Below are positions 7,095-29,353 of a stretch of 64,000 nucleotides of DNA, in pieces. Source of the DNA: Flavobacteriales bacterium (GTDB lineage Bacteria; Bacteroidota; Bacteroidia; Flavobacteriales_F; PHOS-HE28); NCBI GenBank assembly GCA_016788485.1, contig JAEUSV010000091.1, positions 138-64,137 of the forward strand. The letters are read 5' to 3'. Every line of letters starts with the position of its first letter. Within the stretch, counting starts at the first letter, position 1. The translations under genes and the position numbers were made by a program. The notes below the pieces were generated by a model. It was not told the DNA's origin. It saw only the letters and a list, made by a program, of their open reading frames with translations, and did not search any database.

Positions 7095-8128
7095 GCCTCT
7101 CCGAACGCATCGCGGCCCTCGAGGAGGAAGTGCGCAACGCCGCGGCCCGCACGGCCGATGAGGTGGAGCGCTTCCGCGTGGCCATGCTCGGCCGCAACGG
7201 GGCCGTCACCGCCCTGTTCGACGACTTCAAGCAGGTGGCGGCCGAGGAGAAGCGCGCCCTGGGCCAGCGGCTCAACCAGCTGAAACAGAGCGCGCAGGCG
7301 CGCTGGGAGGAGCTGAAGCAGGCCTCCGAGACAGGTGCTGGCGGTGCCGTCCAGGAGGGCGATCCCACCCGCCCCGCGGCCATCGACGCGGCCGGCTCGC
7401 TGCACCCCATCACCCTTGTACGCCAGCGCATCGTGGACACCTTCGCCCGCATCGGCTTCACCGTGAGCCAGGGCCCCGAGGTGGAGGACGATCACCACAA
7501 CTTCAGCGCGCTCAACTTCCCACCGGACCACCCGGCCCGGGACATGCAGGACACCTTCTTCGTGGAGGGCGCCGGGCAGTATGCGCTGCGCACCCACACC
7601 AGCAGCGTACAGGTGCGCGTGATGGAGGGGTCCAAGCCGCCCATCCGCACCATCAGCCCCGGCCGGGTGTACCGCAACGAGGCCATCAGCGCCCGCGCCC
7701 ACTGCATGTTCCACCAGGTCGAGGGCCTGTACGTGGACAAGGGCGTGAGCTTCGCCGAGCTCAAGGGTACGCTCGATCACTTCGTGAAGAGCATGTTCGG
7801 CCCCGACGTGCGCATCCGCATGCGGCCGAGCTATTTCCCCTTCACCGAACCCAGCGCCGAGGTGGACATGAGCTGCACCATCTGTGGCGGCCCCGGCTGC
7901 ACGGTGTGCAAGCACAGCGGCTGGGTGGAGATCATGGGCTGTGGCATGGTGGACCCCGCGGTGCTCGCCAACTGCGGCATCGACCCCGAGGTGTACAGCG
8001 GCTACGCCTTCGGCATGGGCGTGGAGCGCATCGCCCAGCTCACCTACCGCGTGCCCGACCTGCGCCTCTACTGGGAGAACGACGTGCGCTTCCTGGAGCA
8101 GTTCCGGGCCGACGCGTTCCGCAGCTGA
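7091..8128 (+). CDS. pheS: phenylalanine--tRNA ligase alpha subunit
   Basis: Motifs: HPITLVRQRIVDTFARIGF, DTFF, FRPSYFPFTEPSAEVD, GCGMVDP, AFGMGVERIA. The ATG overlaps the upstream stop codon (ATGA). Confidence 0.95.
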   Translation: MSLSERIAALEEEVRNAAARTADEVERFRVAMLGRNGAVTALFDDFKQVAAEEKRALGQRLNQLKQSAQARWEELKQASETGAGGAVQEGDPTRPAAIDAAGSLHPITLVRQRIVDTFARIGFTVSQGPEVEDDHHNFSALNFPPDHPARDMQDTFFVEGAGQYALRTHTSSVQVRVMEGSKPPIRTISPGRVYRNEAISARAHCMFHQVEGLYVDKGVSFAELKGTLDHFVKSMFGPDVRIRMRPSYFPFTEPSAEVDMSCTICGGPGCTVCKHSGWVEIMGCGMVDPAVLANCGIDPEVYSGYAFGMGVERIAQLTYRVPDLRLYWENDVRFLEQFRADAFRS

Positions 8129-8163
8129 AGATCCGGCCGCCAAGGCACAACGATGCGAAGGGG

Positions 8164-9447
8164 ATGAGCGAAGAACTGCGTTCCTCGGCGCCCCGGCACG
8201 AAACCCTTTCCGCGGACGTCTGCATCATCGGCGGCGGCCCCGGTGGTTGTGCAGCGGCCCTGCAGCTCGCCCGGCACGGCGTGCGCACCCTGCTCGTTGA
8301 GAAGGCCACCTTCCCCCGCGACAAGGTGTGCGGCGATGCCCTCAGCGGCAAGGTGATGCGCACCCTCGAGCGCATCGATCCCGCGCTCGCCCAACGCGTG
8401 AACGCCGATGCGCGCCGCATGCCCAGCTGGGGCGTCACCTTCGTGGCCCCCGGTGGCCAGGCCCTGCGCGTGCCCTTCACGCGCGACACCGGCGTGGGCG
8501 AGGCCCCCGGCGCGATCCTGCCCCGCCTGGCCTTCGATGCCCTGCTCTTCGACGCCGTGAAGCGCAACGGCGCCGTGCAGGTGCTTGAGGCGACCGCGGC
8601 GAAACAGTACACCCGAACGCCCGATGGCTGGACGGTGGCGCTCGAAGATGGACGTACCGTGCGATGCAGGCTCGTGCTGGCAGCCGACGGGGCCAACTCG
8701 CACTTCGCGCGCCACGTGGCCGGGCTGCCCATGGAACCGCGCCACCACGCCGCCGGAGTGCGCGCCTACTACCGCGGCATCACCGGCCTCGACCCGCAGG
8801 GCTTCATCGAGCTGCACTTCCTCAAGGAGCTGCTGCCCGGCTACCTGTGGATCTTCCCCCTGCCCGACGGGCGCGCCAACGTGGGCCTGGGTCTGCGCGG
8901 CGACCGCGTGCGCGAACGCAAGCTCGACCTCAAGGCCGAGCTGCACCGCCTGGTGGCCACGCACCCCACGCTCAAGGACCGCTTCGCGAACGCCCAGCTC
9001 GAAGGACCGGTGCTGGGCATGGGATTGCCGCTGGGCAGCAAGCGCCATCCGCTCAGCGGTGATGGCTATCTCCTCATCGGTGATGCCGGCCACCTCATCG
9101 ACCCCTTCACCGGCGAAGGCATCAGCCACGCCATGATCAGCGGGGTGCACGCGGCCGACGTGGTGCACGAGGCGCTGCGCGAGGGGCGCACCGACGCGGC
9201 CTTCCTGAAGGCCTACGACGGGCGCGTGTGGAAACGGCTGGGCCAGGAGCTCGCGATCAGCACGCGGCTGCAGGACCTCGCCCACCAGGCCTGGCTCTTC
9301 GACTTCGTGGTGAAGCGCGCCAACCGCAACCCCGCGCTGGCCGACACCATCAGCAGCATGTTCACCGACCTCGACCTGCGCGCGCGCCTGAAACAGCCCG
9401 GCTTCTACATGGACCTGGTGCTGGGCCGCGGGTTGAAGCGGAACTAG
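8164..9447 (+). CDS. geranylgeranyl-reductase-family FAD-dependent oxidoreductase
   Basis: It has the DVCIIGGGPGGCAAA dinucleotide-binding motif, KVCGDALS, and LLIGDAGHLIDPFTGEGI. The start was taken at the internal ATG. Confidence 0.85.
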   Translation: MSEELRSSAPRHETLSADVCIIGGGPGGCAAALQLARHGVRTLLVEKATFPRDKVCGDALSGKVMRTLERIDPALAQRVNADARRMPSWGVTFVAPGGQALRVPFTRDTGVGEAPGAILPRLAFDALLFDAVKRNGAVQVLEATAAKQYTRTPDGWTVALEDGRTVRCRLVLAADGANSHFARHVAGLPMEPRHHAAGVRAYYRGITGLDPQGFIELHFLKELLPGYLWIFPLPDGRANVGLGLRGDRVRERKLDLKAELHRLVATHPTLKDRFANAQLEGPVLGMGLPLGSKRHPLSGDGYLLIGDAGHLIDPFTGEGISHAMISGVHAADVVHEALREGRTDAAFLKAYDGRVWKRLGQELAISTRLQDLAHQAWLFDFVVKRANRNPALADTISSMFTDLDLRARLKQPGFYMDLVLGRGLKRN

Positions 9448-22396: not shown

Positions 22397-23729
22397 CGAG
22401 CTCTTCCACCGCTCCTTGCACGACGCGGAGGTGACCCCGCCGCCTGCGGTGTGGGAGGGCATCGCACGCGCGCGCCGCAAGCGGAGGGCTGGCTGGCTGC
22501 GGTGGGGCGCCCTGGCCCTGCTGTTGGCCGGCGCCGCCGGCCTGGGGCTCTGGAGGCCCTGGCACCAGGAGCCCGTGGCCCAGAACCCTGGACAAGCGAA
22601 CACCACACCCGCCGTGCCGCACACATCCATCGCGAGCACGCGCCCGAGCGACCCGGCTGCCACATCCCCGGACATCGCAGCGGATCAGCGCGCACCGGGA
22701 ACCACGGACATCGCACAGCCTGCATCAACGAAAACCGTCCGGTCGAACGACCCCGGCCCCAACACTCCACCGCCCGCAAGGAGGAACAGCGGACACCGCC
22801 CGGTCGCCAACTCCGGGATCAAGCCAGAACCGGCCGGACCCGCCGTAGCAGCCCCGGACCTGGCCTTGGAGACACCCGCCGATGCTCCCTCGACACCGCG
22901 CGATGGGCAGGAGCACCTGGCATGGCTCACGGTACTTGGACCCCGGACCACAGCTGCTCCCGCGGTAAGTCCGCTCGGTCGCGAACGATCACCCTACGTG
23001 CTGCCGGGTGCGGAATGGTGGGTGGCCTTGGAAGTGGGCCGTCACGACGTGGACCGCTCGTGGTCCGGCAAGGATGAGGCGCTCGTGGAGGCGCTCAACG
23101 GCACGGAGGTCCCCCATCCGACCTGGAGCGCCGGGGCCCTGTTCGGCCGCACCTGGCGCAGCGGCCTCGGTGTTTCGGTCGGTGCGGCGTACGAAGGCTC
23201 GCGGTACGAGTTCGACCACGTGGAACAGCAACTTCCTGTTGATTCCGTGATCGAGTACACCTACCTCGTCACCCTCGACACCCAGGTCTTCGTGAGCACC
23301 CCGGCCACCACCGTGGTCTATGGGGAGCCTACGGAAACACGGGTCACCGGCAGTAACAGTCTGGGTATCCTGCAACTGCCCGTGGAACTTTACTGGCACG
23401 CACCGGTGAAGCGCTGGTCGTTCGGCGGGCGCATCGGCCTGATAACGGAGCTTACGCTGGTGCGACGGGGCTACACCCTGGTGAATGACGAGGAGCTCGG
23501 TCTGCTCAGCGCCCCCTGTGGCGAGGAGCGCTTCGATAGCCGTTACGGACCGGTGCTCACCGGCATCATCGGGGCCGACCTGGGCTACACCCTTACCGAG
23601 CGCTGGGGGCTCTGGCTCTCCCCATCGTACATGCGCGGCCTTGCCGCCTTCGGCACAAGCGATCAACCCTGGTCACTGCCCGAGCGGTTCAGCCTGCGCA
23701 TGCGACTTTCGTACTCGTTCATCCGCTGA
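22374..23729 (+). CDS. membrane-anchored protein downstream of the ECF sigma gene (possible anti-sigma or outer-membrane beta-rich protein)
   Basis: The start overlaps the sigma gene 3' end by 23 nt. It has a short cytoplasmic N-terminus, one TM (WGALALLLAGAAGLGLW), a Pro/Ala/Thr-rich linker and a beta-strand-rich C-terminal half. Confidence 0.6.
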   Translation: MSEKHPIDELFHRSLHDAEVTPPPAVWEGIARARRKRRAGWLRWGALALLLAGAAGLGLWRPWHQEPVAQNPGQANTTPAVPHTSIASTRPSDPAATSPDIAADQRAPGTTDIAQPASTKTVRSNDPGPNTPPPARRNSGHRPVANSGIKPEPAGPAVAAPDLALETPADAPSTPRDGQEHLAWLTVLGPRTTAAPAVSPLGRERSPYVLPGAEWWVALEVGRHDVDRSWSGKDEALVEALNGTEVPHPTWSAGALFGRTWRSGLGVSVGAAYEGSRYEFDHVEQQLPVDSVIEYTYLVTLDTQVFVSTPATTVVYGEPTETRVTGSNSLGILQLPVELYWHAPVKRWSFGGRIGLITELTLVRRGYTLVNDEELGLLSAPCGEERFDSRYGPVLTGIIGADLGYTLTERWGLWLSPSYMRGLAAFGTSDQPWSLPERFSLRMRLSYSFIR

Positions 23730-25376: not shown

Positions 25377-25384
25377 GTCATTTA
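25377..25384 (+). repeat. target-site duplication, left copy (GTCATTTA)
   Basis: An identical 8-mer directly abuts the other transposon end at 29346..29353. Confidence 0.9.
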
Positions 25385-25412
25385 GGGAACTATATACCAG
25401 TTGGGACAGGCC
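25385..25412 (+). repeat. left terminal inverted repeat (GGGAACTATATACCAGTTGGGACAGGCC)
   Basis: Perfect reverse complement of 29318..29345. Confidence 0.95.
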
Positions 25413-25468
25413 GGAAAGCGCGTCCCTATTGAGATGTGTGCCTCGTTCCAACAATGATCGTGGATAAG

Positions 25469-25519: not shown

Positions 25520-26062
25520 ATGGACGCCACCGAACAGTTCGCGCACTTGCGAAAACTGCTGGACGAGGCTCTCTTGCTTGTCAGTGAGCTTGAGGCTGAA
25601 CAGTTGGTTGGTTCGCATACTGTCCTGGCTAAGCCTGATGCTCACGTCCGATCGCAACTCTTGACCCCGACCGGGAAGATCCGGGGGCTGTCCGACCGTA
25701 TCATCGGTGCCTTGCGAGAGAAGCAAGAACCAATGACGGCATCCGAGTTGACGACCGCTGTGTATGATCGCCAATATGGTCTGTCATACGACGCCATGAA
25801 GCGCAGGGTGGCCGTCTGTACATCTGCTCTCCATAAACGCCAAGGCAAGCTGGTATGGCAGAAGATGGAATCCGGAGAGGTGTACTGGTACTTGCCTGAA
25901 TGGGTAGAACAGGGGAAACAGGCATGGAAGGGCTCCTTGATAACTGATCGCCTCCTGGTGGTGCATGATATGCTGAAAAGCACCCATCCCCGCCTCCAAA
26001 CACCTACGGAAAACACTGAGACTAACCCATCACCTAACGACGACGAGAGTTCCTTGTCATGA
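25520..26062 (+). CDS. transposon cargo: 180-aa hypothetical protein, possibly winged-helix
   Basis: Unique long ORF in this stretch. The central segment (LSDRIIGALREKQEPMTASELTTAVY...GKLVWQKMESGEVYWYLPEW) resembles wHTH/HARE-HTH-type layouts. That reading is inference only. Confidence 0.55.
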   Translation: MDATEQFAHLRKLLDEALLLVSELEAEQLVGSHTVLAKPDAHVRSQLLTPTGKIRGLSDRIIGALREKQEPMTASELTTAVYDRQYGLSYDAMKRRVAVCTSALHKRQGKLVWQKMESGEVYWYLPEWVEQGKQAWKGSLITDRLLVVHDMLKSTHPRLQTPTENTETNPSPNDDESSLS

Positions 26063-26150
26063 TGATCGTGTGCCGTTCGCCGCGTCGTAAGCGGTCGAAC
26101 CCGTCCCGACCGGGACAGGGCTGAGATACCAGCCGGATGAACTGCACGCA

Positions 26151-26248
26151 ACCACCGTAGCTCAAAGGATAGAGCGTCCCGCGCCACCTACTGCTGCAAC
26201 CAGGGGAGGCACTGAGGGAAGATGCAGGTTCGAGTCCTGCCGGTGGTA
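26151..26248 (+). ncRNA. 98-nt tRNA-like gene with a grossly extended anticodon arm (apex loop CTGCAAC, GCA)
   Basis: Perfect 7-bp acceptor (ACCACCG/CGGTGGT). Canonical D arm (GCTC-AAAGGATA-GAGC) and T arm (GCAGG-TTCGAGT-CCTGC). There are 47 nt between D and T arms where 21-22 are expected. Confidence 0.5.
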
Positions 26249-26493
26249 CTAGTCGCGGCCGAAGCCGGTCCCATTAGCCGTCCAACCGGGGTGGCAGCCC
26301 CGGGCTTAGGCAGAGGAGGTAGAGCTCCCAAACGCGACCCCTTATTTCAAGCGAGGCTCGGTTCCGAAGGGGGCCGGGCCTCGTCTGCAAATGTATGGTG
26401 CGAATTACTTCGATCCAAACGCCCTCCCAGTGAGGGCGCGCCACATCCAGCGCACGAGGTCGTGGATCTAGCGGAACCTGGGGTGAACGAAGC

Positions 26494-26619
26494 TCACTTG
26501 CGCTTGCTCTTCTTGGTGGCCTTCTTGACGGCCTTCTTGGGCTTCTTGACGGCCTTGGTCATGGCGACCTTTAGCACGTCCTGAAACTCGCCCTGGATCT
26601 TCAGCGTCCGGTCTTCCAT
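26494..26619 (-). CDS. transposon cargo: 41-aa Lys-rich micro-protein, absent from the ORF track
   Basis: Hand translation gives MEDRTLKIQGEFQDVLKVAMTKAVKKPKKAVKKATKKSKRK. Nearly every codon ends in G or C. It starts 28 nt downstream of the transposase stop on the same strand. Confidence 0.45.
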   Translation of the reverse strand: MEDRTLKIQGEFQDVLKVAMTKAVKKPKKAVKKATKKSKRK

Positions 26620-26647: not shown

Positions 26648-27571
26648 TCACTGGGCCTTGCCGATCAGTTGACGGTAGGTGATGCGGCGACCTTCGGCCT
26701 GCTGAACGGCCAGCGTATGGCGGTCCTGCTGGCTGAACTCCCGCGTGTTGTACCGGAACGTGAACTCGTCGCAGTAGCGATCCAGGTGCTTGGGGCTCAC
26801 GTAGTGGTACACACCTACCATACCGCGCTTGAAGAGCGCCCAAAAGCTCTCGATCGTGTTGGTGTGGGCGGTTCCACGCACGTACTCACCACCGCTGTGG
26901 TTCACCGTTTCGTGGATGTAGGTCCGGGCCAGTCCGGTATAGCCGTTGTGCTCGTCCGTGTACACGGTGGCATCAATGGCTACGTGCTTCCGCATAATGG
27001 GCTGGATGGTGGCCTTCTTGCTGTTCAGCACCGACTTGGCGACCACCTTACCACCACGCTGAACGATGCCGAACACGGCGGTTTTGCCAGCGCCACCCTG
27101 GGCACCTTCGATGCGCTTGTTGAGGTGCTTGTTCGCCTCCTTGCCACCGACATAGGTTTCGTCGCACTCAACTTGCCCGGCCAGCATTGCGGGCGCGTTC
27201 TCCTTCAGCATTTCACGAAGGCGCGATAGCACGAACCATGCACTCTTCTGGGTGATGCCAAGATCCTTGGCGAGCTGCACGCTGCTGATGCCTTTGGGGT
27301 GGTTGCAGGCGAGGTAGATGCCAATGAACCACACGCGGAGGGGAAGCTTCGTGTTCTCGAAGATGGTGCCGGTGGTAACACTGAACTTCTTGCCGCACTC
27401 CTTGGAGCAGCACTTGTAGCGCTTGCCGCCTTCGATGCTGTAGGCACCTACGGTACCACAGAAGTGGCACGCGGCCGGGCCTTGGCCCCAGCGCAGGGTG
27501 GCAAGGTGCTTACGGCAAACCCCTTCGTCGCTGAATTGGGTGGTGAGCTGGATGATATTCTCGAAGCGCAT
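26648..27571 (-). CDS. IS1595-family (ISXO2-like) DDE transposase
   Basis: N-terminal zinc ribbon (CPHCG-like: ACHFCG...YKCCSKEC), an HTH (ISSVQLAKDLGITQKSAWF), and a DDE core (ECDETYVGG...VYTDEHNGY...HTNTIESFW). Confidence 0.9.
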   Translation of the reverse strand: MRFENIIQLTTQFSDEGVCRKHLATLRWGQGPAACHFCGTVGAYSIEGGKRYKCCSKECGKKFSVTTGTIFENTKLPLRVWFIGIYLACNHPKGISSVQLAKDLGITQKSAWFVLSRLREMLKENAPAMLAGQVECDETYVGGKEANKHLNKRIEGAQGGAGKTAVFGIVQRGGKVVAKSVLNSKKATIQPIMRKHVAIDATVYTDEHNGYTGLARTYIHETVNHSGGEYVRGTAHTNTIESFWALFKRGMVGVYHYVSPKHLDRYCDEFTFRYNTREFSQQDRHTLAVQQAEGRRITYRQLIGKAQ

Positions 27572-29317: not shown

Positions 29318-29345
29318 GGCCTGTCCCAACTGGTATATAGTTCCC
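29318..29345 (+). repeat. right terminal inverted repeat
   Basis: GGCCTGTCCCAACTGGTATATAGTTCCC is the perfect reverse complement of 25385..25412. Confidence 0.95.
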
Positions 29346-29353
29346 GTCATTTA
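29346..29353 (+). repeat. target-site duplication, right copy (GTCATTTA)
   Basis: Identical to 25377..25384. Confidence 0.9.

Follow-up and report, generated by a model that had tools for sequence, protein, structure and literature searches.

A tRNA-shaped RNA with an extended anticodon arm in an array of structured RNAs on an IS1595-family transposon

Results

We analyzed a tRNA-like RNA encoded at positions 26151–26248(+) of a 64,000-nucleotide (nt) stretch of contig JAEUSV010000091.1 (positions 138–64,137, forward strand). This stretch, referred to here as the window, comes from a metagenome-assembled genome (MAG) of 3.58 Mb in 168 contigs that is 84% complete, and the tRNA-like RNA is single-copy in this MAG. 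It lies inside a 3,961-base-pair (bp) IS1595-family transposon that is bounded by perfect 28-bp terminal inverted repeats (TIRs; GGGAACTATATACCAGTTGGGACAGGCC) at 25385–25412 on the left and 29318–29345 on the right, is flanked by direct repeats forming an 8-bp target duplication (GTCATTTA at 25377–25384 and 29346–29353), and contains an internal DDE_Tnp_IS1595 transposase. These features agree with the original prediction of a transposon-borne RNA and identify the element as passenger cargo. The perfect TIRs and the target duplication suggest that the carrier was recently active, and its cargo is therefore unlikely to be long dead. Within the transposon, the tRNA-like RNA follows the gene orfX (25520–26062(+)), and two further structured RNAs that had gone unremarked adjoin it head to tail, motif A upstream (26068–26149(+)) and block B downstream (26249–26339(+)). 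The closing helix of motif A ends at 26149 and helix P1 of block B begins at 26252, leaving gaps of 1 nt and 3 nt on the two sides of the tRNA-like RNA. Across the aligned loci a common architecture recurs, with orfX first, structured RNAs strung out behind it and a GC-rich hairpin at the end.

The tRNA-like RNA has a canonical acceptor stem, D arm, variable loop and T arm, arranged as ACCACCG-TA-GCTC-AAAGGATA-GAGC-G-(43 nt)-AGAT-GCAGG-TTCGAGT-CCTGC-CGGTGGT-A, with a discriminator A and no encoded CCA. Its anticodon arm has 43 nt where a tRNA has 17, made up of a 4-bp base and a conserved 35-nt insert at 26181–26215. All of this anatomy is as originally described, and two of the programs suggested as checks, ARAGORN and Infernal with Rfam, both recovered a tRNA. 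ARAGORN called a 99-nt tRNA at 26151–26248(+), and the Rfam tRNA model (RF00005) gave 52 bits against a gathering threshold of 29 (E = 2.9 × 10−8 over the whole 64-kb window), matching end to end (model positions 1–71) with a sole anomaly, 35 nt where the model has 9. In addition to this above-gathering score, the element has the 7-bp acceptor stem, G18G19 D arm and GTTCRANYC-type T arm of the structural tRNA family, and its minimum free energy (MFE) fold is a cloverleaf with a long imperfect anticodon arm. The folding stability is unremarkable (z = −1.57; 16 of 200 shuffles fold equally well), so the case for significance comes from the covariance-model score and from the compensatory changes seen in two homologues. 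Judged by these features of its sequence, the element is confirmed as a genuine tRNA-shaped RNA gene on the transposon.

The label that ARAGORN attached to its call, tRNA-Pyl(cta), was rejected as a forced fold with a mispaired D stem and anticodon stem. Neither tRNA-Pyl nor tRNA-Cys describes the element, as a CUA anticodon needs these mispaired stems and a GCA triplet stands at the tip of the long arm and is GGA in the homologues. A Plastid-ycf2 Rfam match on the antisense strand was discarded as noise, and no K-turn, loop-E or box C/D-like motif fits the arm on inspection by eye.

At the standard distance from the elbow, there is no 5-bp stem closing a 7-nt loop with U33 and a purine at position 37; the anticodon stem is directly followed by CGCCACC, which puts G, not U, at position 33. 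A functional decoding tRNA could still result if the 35-nt insert were an intron, and roughly half of the long-insert tRNA-shaped genes that we identified in environmental contigs keep a U33-NNN-R37 start right after a 5-bp stem. In the window element, however, a canonical 7-nt loop cannot be recovered by any excision, the bacterial host has a tmRNA (encoded elsewhere in the genome, on C20), and, as noted originally, the length rules out a group I intron, the insert having 35 nt where such introns have approximately 200 nt or more. No Rfam intron family matched the tRNA-like RNA even at E ≤ 5, and a protein-dependent tRNA splicing endonuclease is not known from bacteria. We consider an intron-containing tRNA very improbable.

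The original prediction had also proposed that a Cys-type anticodon loop is displaced by about 13 bp, to the tip of a long helix in the arm. The MFE fold does include a long imperfect arm, but a CTGCTG repeat permits two apical registers, and the MFE register (CUG-CAAC-CAG) has a 4-nt loop instead of the proposed 7-nt loop CUGCAAC, which is one possible register. Across the window sequence and its two homologues, the 7-nt-loop register has two pairs broken in the homologues, compared to one broken pair and one conservative change (U-G to U-A) for the MFE register. The apical GCA of the window is GGA in both homologues (central C to G), and sister tRNA-like RNAs at the equivalent position carry unrelated long arms, one of 94 nt in G136 and two in tandem of 100 and 104 nt in G094. 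One of the G094 arms ends in a GCAA tetraloop, with nothing resembling an anticodon loop. The long arm itself thus stood, and the displaced anticodon loop did not. By established tRNA and ribosome geometry, the decoding centre would be out of reach for a loop displaced from the elbow by approximately 13 additional bp. The window element is a tRNA mimic, not a decoder.

A covariance model built from the tRNA-like RNA (R1) was run against 121 of the 131 species that represent the genus. This resulted in two full-length 99-nt homologues, in G097 (91.5 bits) and G139 (88.5 bits), which score 45.2 and 45.7 bits with RF00005 and are identical to each other at 97 of 99 positions. Scanning for the pattern of the insert core revealed no further true copies in all GTDB species representatives and none in JGI metagenomes; the pattern matches in L050 and L052 were rejected as chance matches in coding DNA. 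In a model-guided alignment, the window and G097 are identical at 79 of 99 positions, and the differences are highly non-random. Identity is high in the D arm (15/16), the T arm (17/17) and the 35-nt insert (31/35) and low in the acceptor stem (6/14) and the 4-bp base of the anticodon stem (4/8), with 12 of these 22 acceptor and anticodon-base positions differing between the window and G097/G139. Five double changes are compensatory, at pairs 2:71, 4:69 and 5:68 of the acceptor stem and 27:43 and 29:41 of the anticodon base, and the only changed stem pair that is uncompensated is 1:72, an A-U pair in the window and a C/A mismatch in both homologues. Because the stem changes are compensated, the D and T arms are nearly unchanged and the insert is so similar, these comparisons indicate that the tRNA-like shape is maintained by selection and is not a decaying pseudogene. 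The element was thus rightly described as too regular for random decay, and the uncompensated stem substitutions by which the original prediction would have recognized a pseudogene were confined to this one pair.

The opposing explanation is that the element is a relic, a passenger tRNA inactivated by an insertion in its anticodon loop that hitch-hikes on the transposon, with the similarity between lineages due to recent horizontal spread and not to selection. The small number of copies (three in two lineages, none in JGI metagenomes) and the z-score of only −1.57 would fit a relic, as would a likeness to a tRNA-Arg(CCU) of the genus and a badly degenerate tRNA-shaped segment at the same position in G011, both described below. 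We find this explanation doubtful, given that all five variable stem pairs besides 1:72 are compensated while the neighboring sequences are far more diverged between the window and the homologues (the orfX proteins are 35% identical and block B approximately 68%). The independent tRNA-like RNAs with other long arms at the same place in G136 and G094 suggest repeated retention, and the carrier transposon looks recently active.

Block B, immediately downstream, is a four-way-junction RNA. Its P1 helix is GUCGCG/CGCGAC (26252–26257 and 26333–26338), AAGC caps P2, the long P3 is variable, a P4 is also present, and the invariant core reads CCGAAG-N-YGGUCYCAUUAGCC ... UAGG. We built a second covariance model (R2) from block B and applied it within the genus and then at the class level. 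In the genus, block B was found in seven credible genomes (7/131), and the alignment, which was fitted to R2, has 88.8% of its cells paired compared to 25–52% in slid controls, with compensatory changes at 14 pairs across the seven genomes. A further match in G001 (28 bits) was rejected as coding sequence. No Rfam family corresponds to block B even at permissive thresholds, and a Hammerhead_II match (16.5 bits, E = 2) was regarded as noise. Copies of block B lie, for example, at L015 8362–8451, at L016 8048–8137(−) and in L182–L184. At the class level, R2 located block B in five other families at 41–57% GC with the core unchanged. In L182, L183 and L184, an orfX-like gene immediately precedes block B, and an IS1595 Zn-ribbon transposase closely follows it. 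The same arrangement is found within the genus in G028 and G013, and in most loci block B is directly 5′ of an IS1595 transposase, in some cases with an RHH gene between them. The transposase beside block B in G028 is 66% identical to that of the window. As the arrangement is shared between other families and G028 and G013, the ancestral unit appears to be orfX, block B in its 3′ untranslated region (UTR), and then the transposase, with or without the RHH gene. The tRNA-like RNAs appear to be genus-level additions between orfX and block B. Block B is a candidate functional RNA specific to an IS1595 subfamily.

Motif A, on the other side of the tRNA-like RNA, has a closing helix (GUGUGC/GCACGC in the window) that differs between lineages but stays complementary in each. 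It surrounds a core in which GUAAGCGGUCGAA and CUGAGAUACC flank a hairpin and whose common form is GUAAG-GGUC-AA ... GAGAUACC. Motif A is present in the window, G097, G139 and G011 with only moderate covariation, and had no credible Rfam match even at permissive thresholds; in G013 and G028, a different structured segment occupies its position. The array closes with a GC-rich hairpin (26352–26393(+)), a terminator-like stem with no T tract in the window, where our scan found no canonical terminator. This hairpin is kept by compensatory changes in G028 (GAGGC/GCCTC to GAAGC/GCTTC), and its counterparts in G097, G139, G136 and G011 run into a T tract. An AU-rich linker, TATTTCAA(G/A), occurs at borders of the RNA modules: at 26340–26350 in the window, at 8340–8362 and 8452–8462 in L015, in L016, and at 8160–8170 in L048. 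It is placed before and after block B, and after the tRNA-like RNA in G136 and G097, and could mark either a site of RNase E-type cleavage or a joint at which modules recombine.

The tRNA-like RNA behaves as an optional module of this array. It accompanies block B in four of the seven credible genus loci (one copy each in the window, G097, G139 and G136), and block B occurs with no copy in G028 and G013. Its order relative to motif A also varies, with motif A lying 5′ of it in the window and 3′ of it in G097 and G139. Such an optional, movable module fits a punctuation or scaffold unit. In G139, the module comes after a tyrosine integrase, and the island that carries it also has a C5 methylase. 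The two tandem long-arm tRNA-like RNAs of G094 (G094:C119; L049 4562–4784) are 19 nt apart and have no block B; they lie between an orfX-like gene and a pair of RHH and IS1595 transposase genes, and operator-like repeats (GACTTTGTCTTAC) flank the RHH gene. The degenerate tRNA-shaped segment of G011 (G011:C57; L091 ~7845–7935(−)) is found between orfX and motif A. It reads GGAGGC...GCCGAGTGGTTAGGC...CCGGTTCGAGTACGG...GCCTCC with a class II-type D arm, and the Rfam tRNA model is silent on it at E ≤ 0.1.

The orfX gene encodes a protein of 180 amino acids with an N-terminal long helix and a winged-helix core, and its 3′ UTR holds the RNA array. Homologues lie upstream of the RNA array in G139, G136 and G011, and more remote ones in G013 and G028. 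The AlphaFold model shows the long N-terminal helix and has a predicted local distance difference test (pLDDT) score of approximately 90 over residues 55–130, the winged-helix core. Foldseek neighbors of this model include Fur- and MarR-type domains, histone H1 and TFIIE winged helices (all E > 0.001), there are weak profile matches to the ZBP1 Z-alpha domain, and no family was found in Pfam, PHROG or NCBIfam. On the strength of the model, we assign orfX generically as a predicted coiled-coil/winged-helix protein.

This raises the possibility of a ribonucleoprotein (RNP), in which the 35-nt arm, alone or with block B, would bind orfX or the transposase and regulate transposition or transposase expression, with the tRNA body of little importance. 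The insert is the most sequence-constrained part of the element outside the tRNA portion (31/35), orfX is always immediately upstream of the RNA array and has a predicted nucleic-acid-binding core, and the order of orfX, block B and IS1595 transposase is conserved across families. On the other hand, G136 and G094 have orfX homologues and wholly different arms, and most loci have orfX and block B with no tRNA-like RNA at all. The winged-helix assignment is generic, with no Foldseek match at E ≤ 0.001, and such domains mostly bind DNA. We judge an RNP role of this kind unlikely. A broader version, which we hold with considerable doubt, is that this IS1595 subfamily carries, in at least six families of one class, a dedicated RNP system that controls or directs transposition. 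Such a system would consist of the coiled-coil/winged-helix protein with block B, motif A and plug-in tRNA scaffolds bearing variable hairpins.

The transposase of the window (26648–27571(−)) is a protein of 307 amino acids with a Zn-ribbon and a DDE domain (Pfam DDE_Tnp_IS1595, 2.1 × 10−45; Zn_ribbon_IS1595, 7.7 × 10−8), and its gene is convergent with the RNA array. Just past its stop codon lies a Lys-rich micro-open reading frame (26494–26562(−)) ending in MTKAVKKPKKAVKKATKKSKRK*, also convergent with the array. The transposon further encodes a protease with a Pfam match, and a scan for sigma-70 promoters and terminators said little about this locus, giving one weak promoter-like site at 25429–25458, in a host that may use promoters of a type other than sigma-70.

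Among the genuine tRNA genes of the source genome, approximately 34 of 42 have no encoded CCA, and the genome encodes a homologue of the CCA-adding enzyme. The maturation route of this host would therefore be expected to accept a tRNA shape lacking CCA. No canonical tRNA-Cys was found in the 84%-complete MAG. Two other ARAGORN predictions in this genome were rejected: an 87-nt tRNA-Cys(gca) (G000:C75:19745–19831(−)) that lies inside a 622-amino-acid open reading frame with no Rfam tRNA support, and a 97-nt tRNA-Pro(cgg) (G000:C106:44668–44764(−)) that looks coding, judged from its sequence and drawing alone. The same contig C75 also has two tandem hairpin-rich repeats of approximately 90 nt (L186 6296–6480; G000:C75 ~22795–22980) with a spurious weak Rfam match to a miRNA family.

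Elsewhere in the genus, which has a GC content of approximately 65%, around 16 genomes have a low-GC (44–51%) 72-nt tRNA-Arg(CCU) (L019–L034, for example G030:C1:79392–79463; L048 2933–3005(−)). This tRNA, which is probably on a mobile element, and the tRNA-like RNA have the D loop, the AGAU variable loop and the T arm in common, and tRNA-Arg(CCU) may be the ancestor of the tRNA portion of the element.

We also scanned environmental sequences for this D arm and T arm at a distance of 36–66 nt, compared to approximately 26 nt in normal class I tRNAs. The scan returned 76 metagenome and 12 viral contigs (L093–L180), 63 of them distinct, and at least 30 distinct loci have a good acceptor stem, a 5-bp anticodon-stem base and a long insert (20–45 nt). 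In addition to the genes with an intron-like U33-NNN-R37 start, some of which look archaeal, there are those that, like the window element, have none. Several are found in phage-type tRNA arrays (L106, L109, L104, L122, L149, L156). One recurrent environmental family, with the arm CGGTGTGGGGTAG-hairpin-AAGYCCCCTGAGATCCGAGGTT, includes the viral contigs L174, L178 and L176, the last of which also encodes CCA. None of the 88 environmental loci has block B. ARAGORN gives these genes arbitrary anticodons and introns, and standard tRNA finders mislabel tRNA-shaped genes with long inserts, for example as “tRNA-Pyl.” Long-insert tRNA-shaped genes thus look like a broader, largely unannotated phenomenon that is fairly common in environmental and viral contigs, and by the sequence comparisons above, the window element is a specific, selected instance of them in a new context, as DNA-transposon cargo joined to a new RNA family.

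The presence of long-insert genes in phage-type arrays, where decoy roles are plausible, speaks for the suggestion that the tRNA-like RNA is a decoy or mimic that sequesters, or is targeted by, an anticodon nuclease, a VapC/PrrC-type toxin, a modification enzyme, a synthetase or EF-Tu, and so protects host tRNAs or tunes a conflict system on the transposon. A canonical elbow and acceptor stem also favor this suggestion. Anticodon nucleases, however, read the anticodon loop, which is absent here, the apical triplet is not conserved (GCA to GGA), and the arms of the sister elements bear no relation to that of the window element. The annotated genes of the transposon include no identified anticodon nuclease or tRNA-modifying enzyme, and neither they nor those of the G139 island include an identified tRNA-targeting enzyme. 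The decoy, mimic and primer ideas of the original prediction are possible and found no specific support; a decoy role seems to us rather improbable.

Discussion

The reading that we favor, with confidence somewhat short of even, is that the tRNA-like RNA is a natural, non-decoding tRNA scaffold and punctuation unit that would be cut out of a longer transcript by RNase P and RNase Z. These two nucleases and the CCA-adding enzyme read the acceptor/T arm and the elbow, and ribosomes and most synthetases read the anticodon loop. In the tRNA-like RNA, the parts read by the processing enzymes are canonical, the anticodon loop is absent, and an intact acceptor/T-arm minihelix and elbow are embedded between other RNAs. 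We base the proposal on these retained parts, on the CCA-less tRNA genes of the host, on the 1-nt and 3-nt abutments and on the plug-in behavior of the module. The high identity of the insert between lineages suggests that its sequence is constrained, as that of a payload would be.

Under this proposal, transcription from the left end of the transposon would yield one RNA containing orfX, the tRNA-like RNA and the structured RNAs on either side of it. The intact acceptor, D and T arms of the tRNA-like RNA would adopt the tRNA L-shape. Maturation enzymes would recognize this shape, with RNase P cutting at the 5′ end, 1 nt past the closing helix of motif A, and RNase Z cutting past the discriminator, 3 nt ahead of P1 of block B. 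A polycistronic RNA would thereby be resolved into discrete pieces with defined ends. The tRNA body would serve as a stable, nuclease-resistant carrier displaying the conserved 35-nt hairpin, probably to a protein partner, for which the winged-helix orfX protein is the obvious candidate.

Several observations weigh against this proposal. The exact element is known from only two independent lineages, and since G097 and G139 are nearly identical, the covariation rests on few events; the high identity between lineages could in part reflect recent exchange of the module and not purifying selection. Within the arm, the inner fold shows no covariation, as neither register gains a compensatory change. 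Complementarity of the arm within the transposon is not above chance (best duplex −39.7 kcal/mol compared to −38.4 ± 2.4 for shuffles). We therefore rejected an antisense role of the insert toward the transposon, and the same test found no partner of the conserved arm. Finally, block B and orfX occur with no tRNA-like RNA in most loci, so the tRNA handle is not required for block B biogenesis.

Literature searches on IS1595 with non-coding RNAs (ncRNAs) or tRNA-like RNAs, and on tRNA-like RNAs with extended anticodon arms on transposons, returned nothing relevant. The literature that we searched thus contains no description of a maintained tRNA shape in which a hairpin takes the place of the anticodon loop and which is bacterial DNA-transposon cargo joined to further structured RNAs. 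Block B, a so far unnamed RNA family that covariation supports and that is linked to IS1595 transposases and a winged-helix partner, may be the more important lead and is a candidate in view of the RNA-guided and RNA-regulated transposition seen with bridge RNAs and omega RNAs. If the subfamily did carry an RNP system, it would represent a new class of transposon-encoded functional RNA, with the tRNA module as nature's version of a tRNA scaffold. If instead the scaffold proposal is right, tRNA punctuation would join the maturation routes of bacterial ncRNA arrays.

Structured ncRNAs encoded beside a transposase are familiar from the IS110 bridge RNA, the IS200/605 omega RNA and the IS10 RNA-OUT, and the likeness to the array described here is architectural only. 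Unlike for those RNAs, we found no guide-like variable segments and no complementarity to the element ends or target. IS1595 elements use a DDE transposase, for which no RNA cofactor is known. Intron-bearing pre-tRNAs, whether with archaeal bulge-helix-bulge introns or bacterial group I introns, likewise have extra nucleotides in the anticodon arm of a canonical cloverleaf. The window element differs in its bacterial host, in an insert that is too short, in the absence of an anticodon loop to restore and in the continuous extension of the stem.

Mimicry of tRNAs is known from the 3′ ends of plant viruses, tmRNA, bacterial Y RNAs and the processing of mammalian long non-coding RNAs (lncRNAs). 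Like the bacterial YrlA and tmRNA, the window element joins a tRNA-mimicking module to another RNA domain. The module of YrlA, however, is circularly permuted and its long stem binds Rsr, and tmRNA has no D-arm equivalent and needs SmpB; Rfam gave no match to a Y RNA or tmRNA at the tRNA-like RNA. In mammals, the mascRNA of MALAT1 and its counterpart in MEN-beta are non-decoding tRNA-like RNAs within a long transcript, where cleavage by RNase P and RNase Z sets the ends of the neighboring RNA. By analogy, the reading proposed here would also have a tRNA-like fold embedded in a longer transcript. The mascRNA belongs to a eukaryotic nuclear lncRNA and has a short, poorly conserved anticodon arm, whereas the arm of the window element is extended and conserved.

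The closest parallel is man-made. In the engineered tRNA scaffold of Ponchon and Dardel, RNA inserts are precisely processed and protected from nucleases in Escherichia coli (PMC3753655). As in that design, the window element keeps the acceptor, T and D arms and has the anticodon stem-loop replaced by a hairpin that continues the stem. Unlike the engineered scaffold, it occurs naturally, rides on a DNA transposon and directly adjoins further structured RNAs, and its processing and stability are predicted from its form. If it does act as a scaffold, mobile elements would have reached the solution that RNA engineers use for stable recombinant RNAs.

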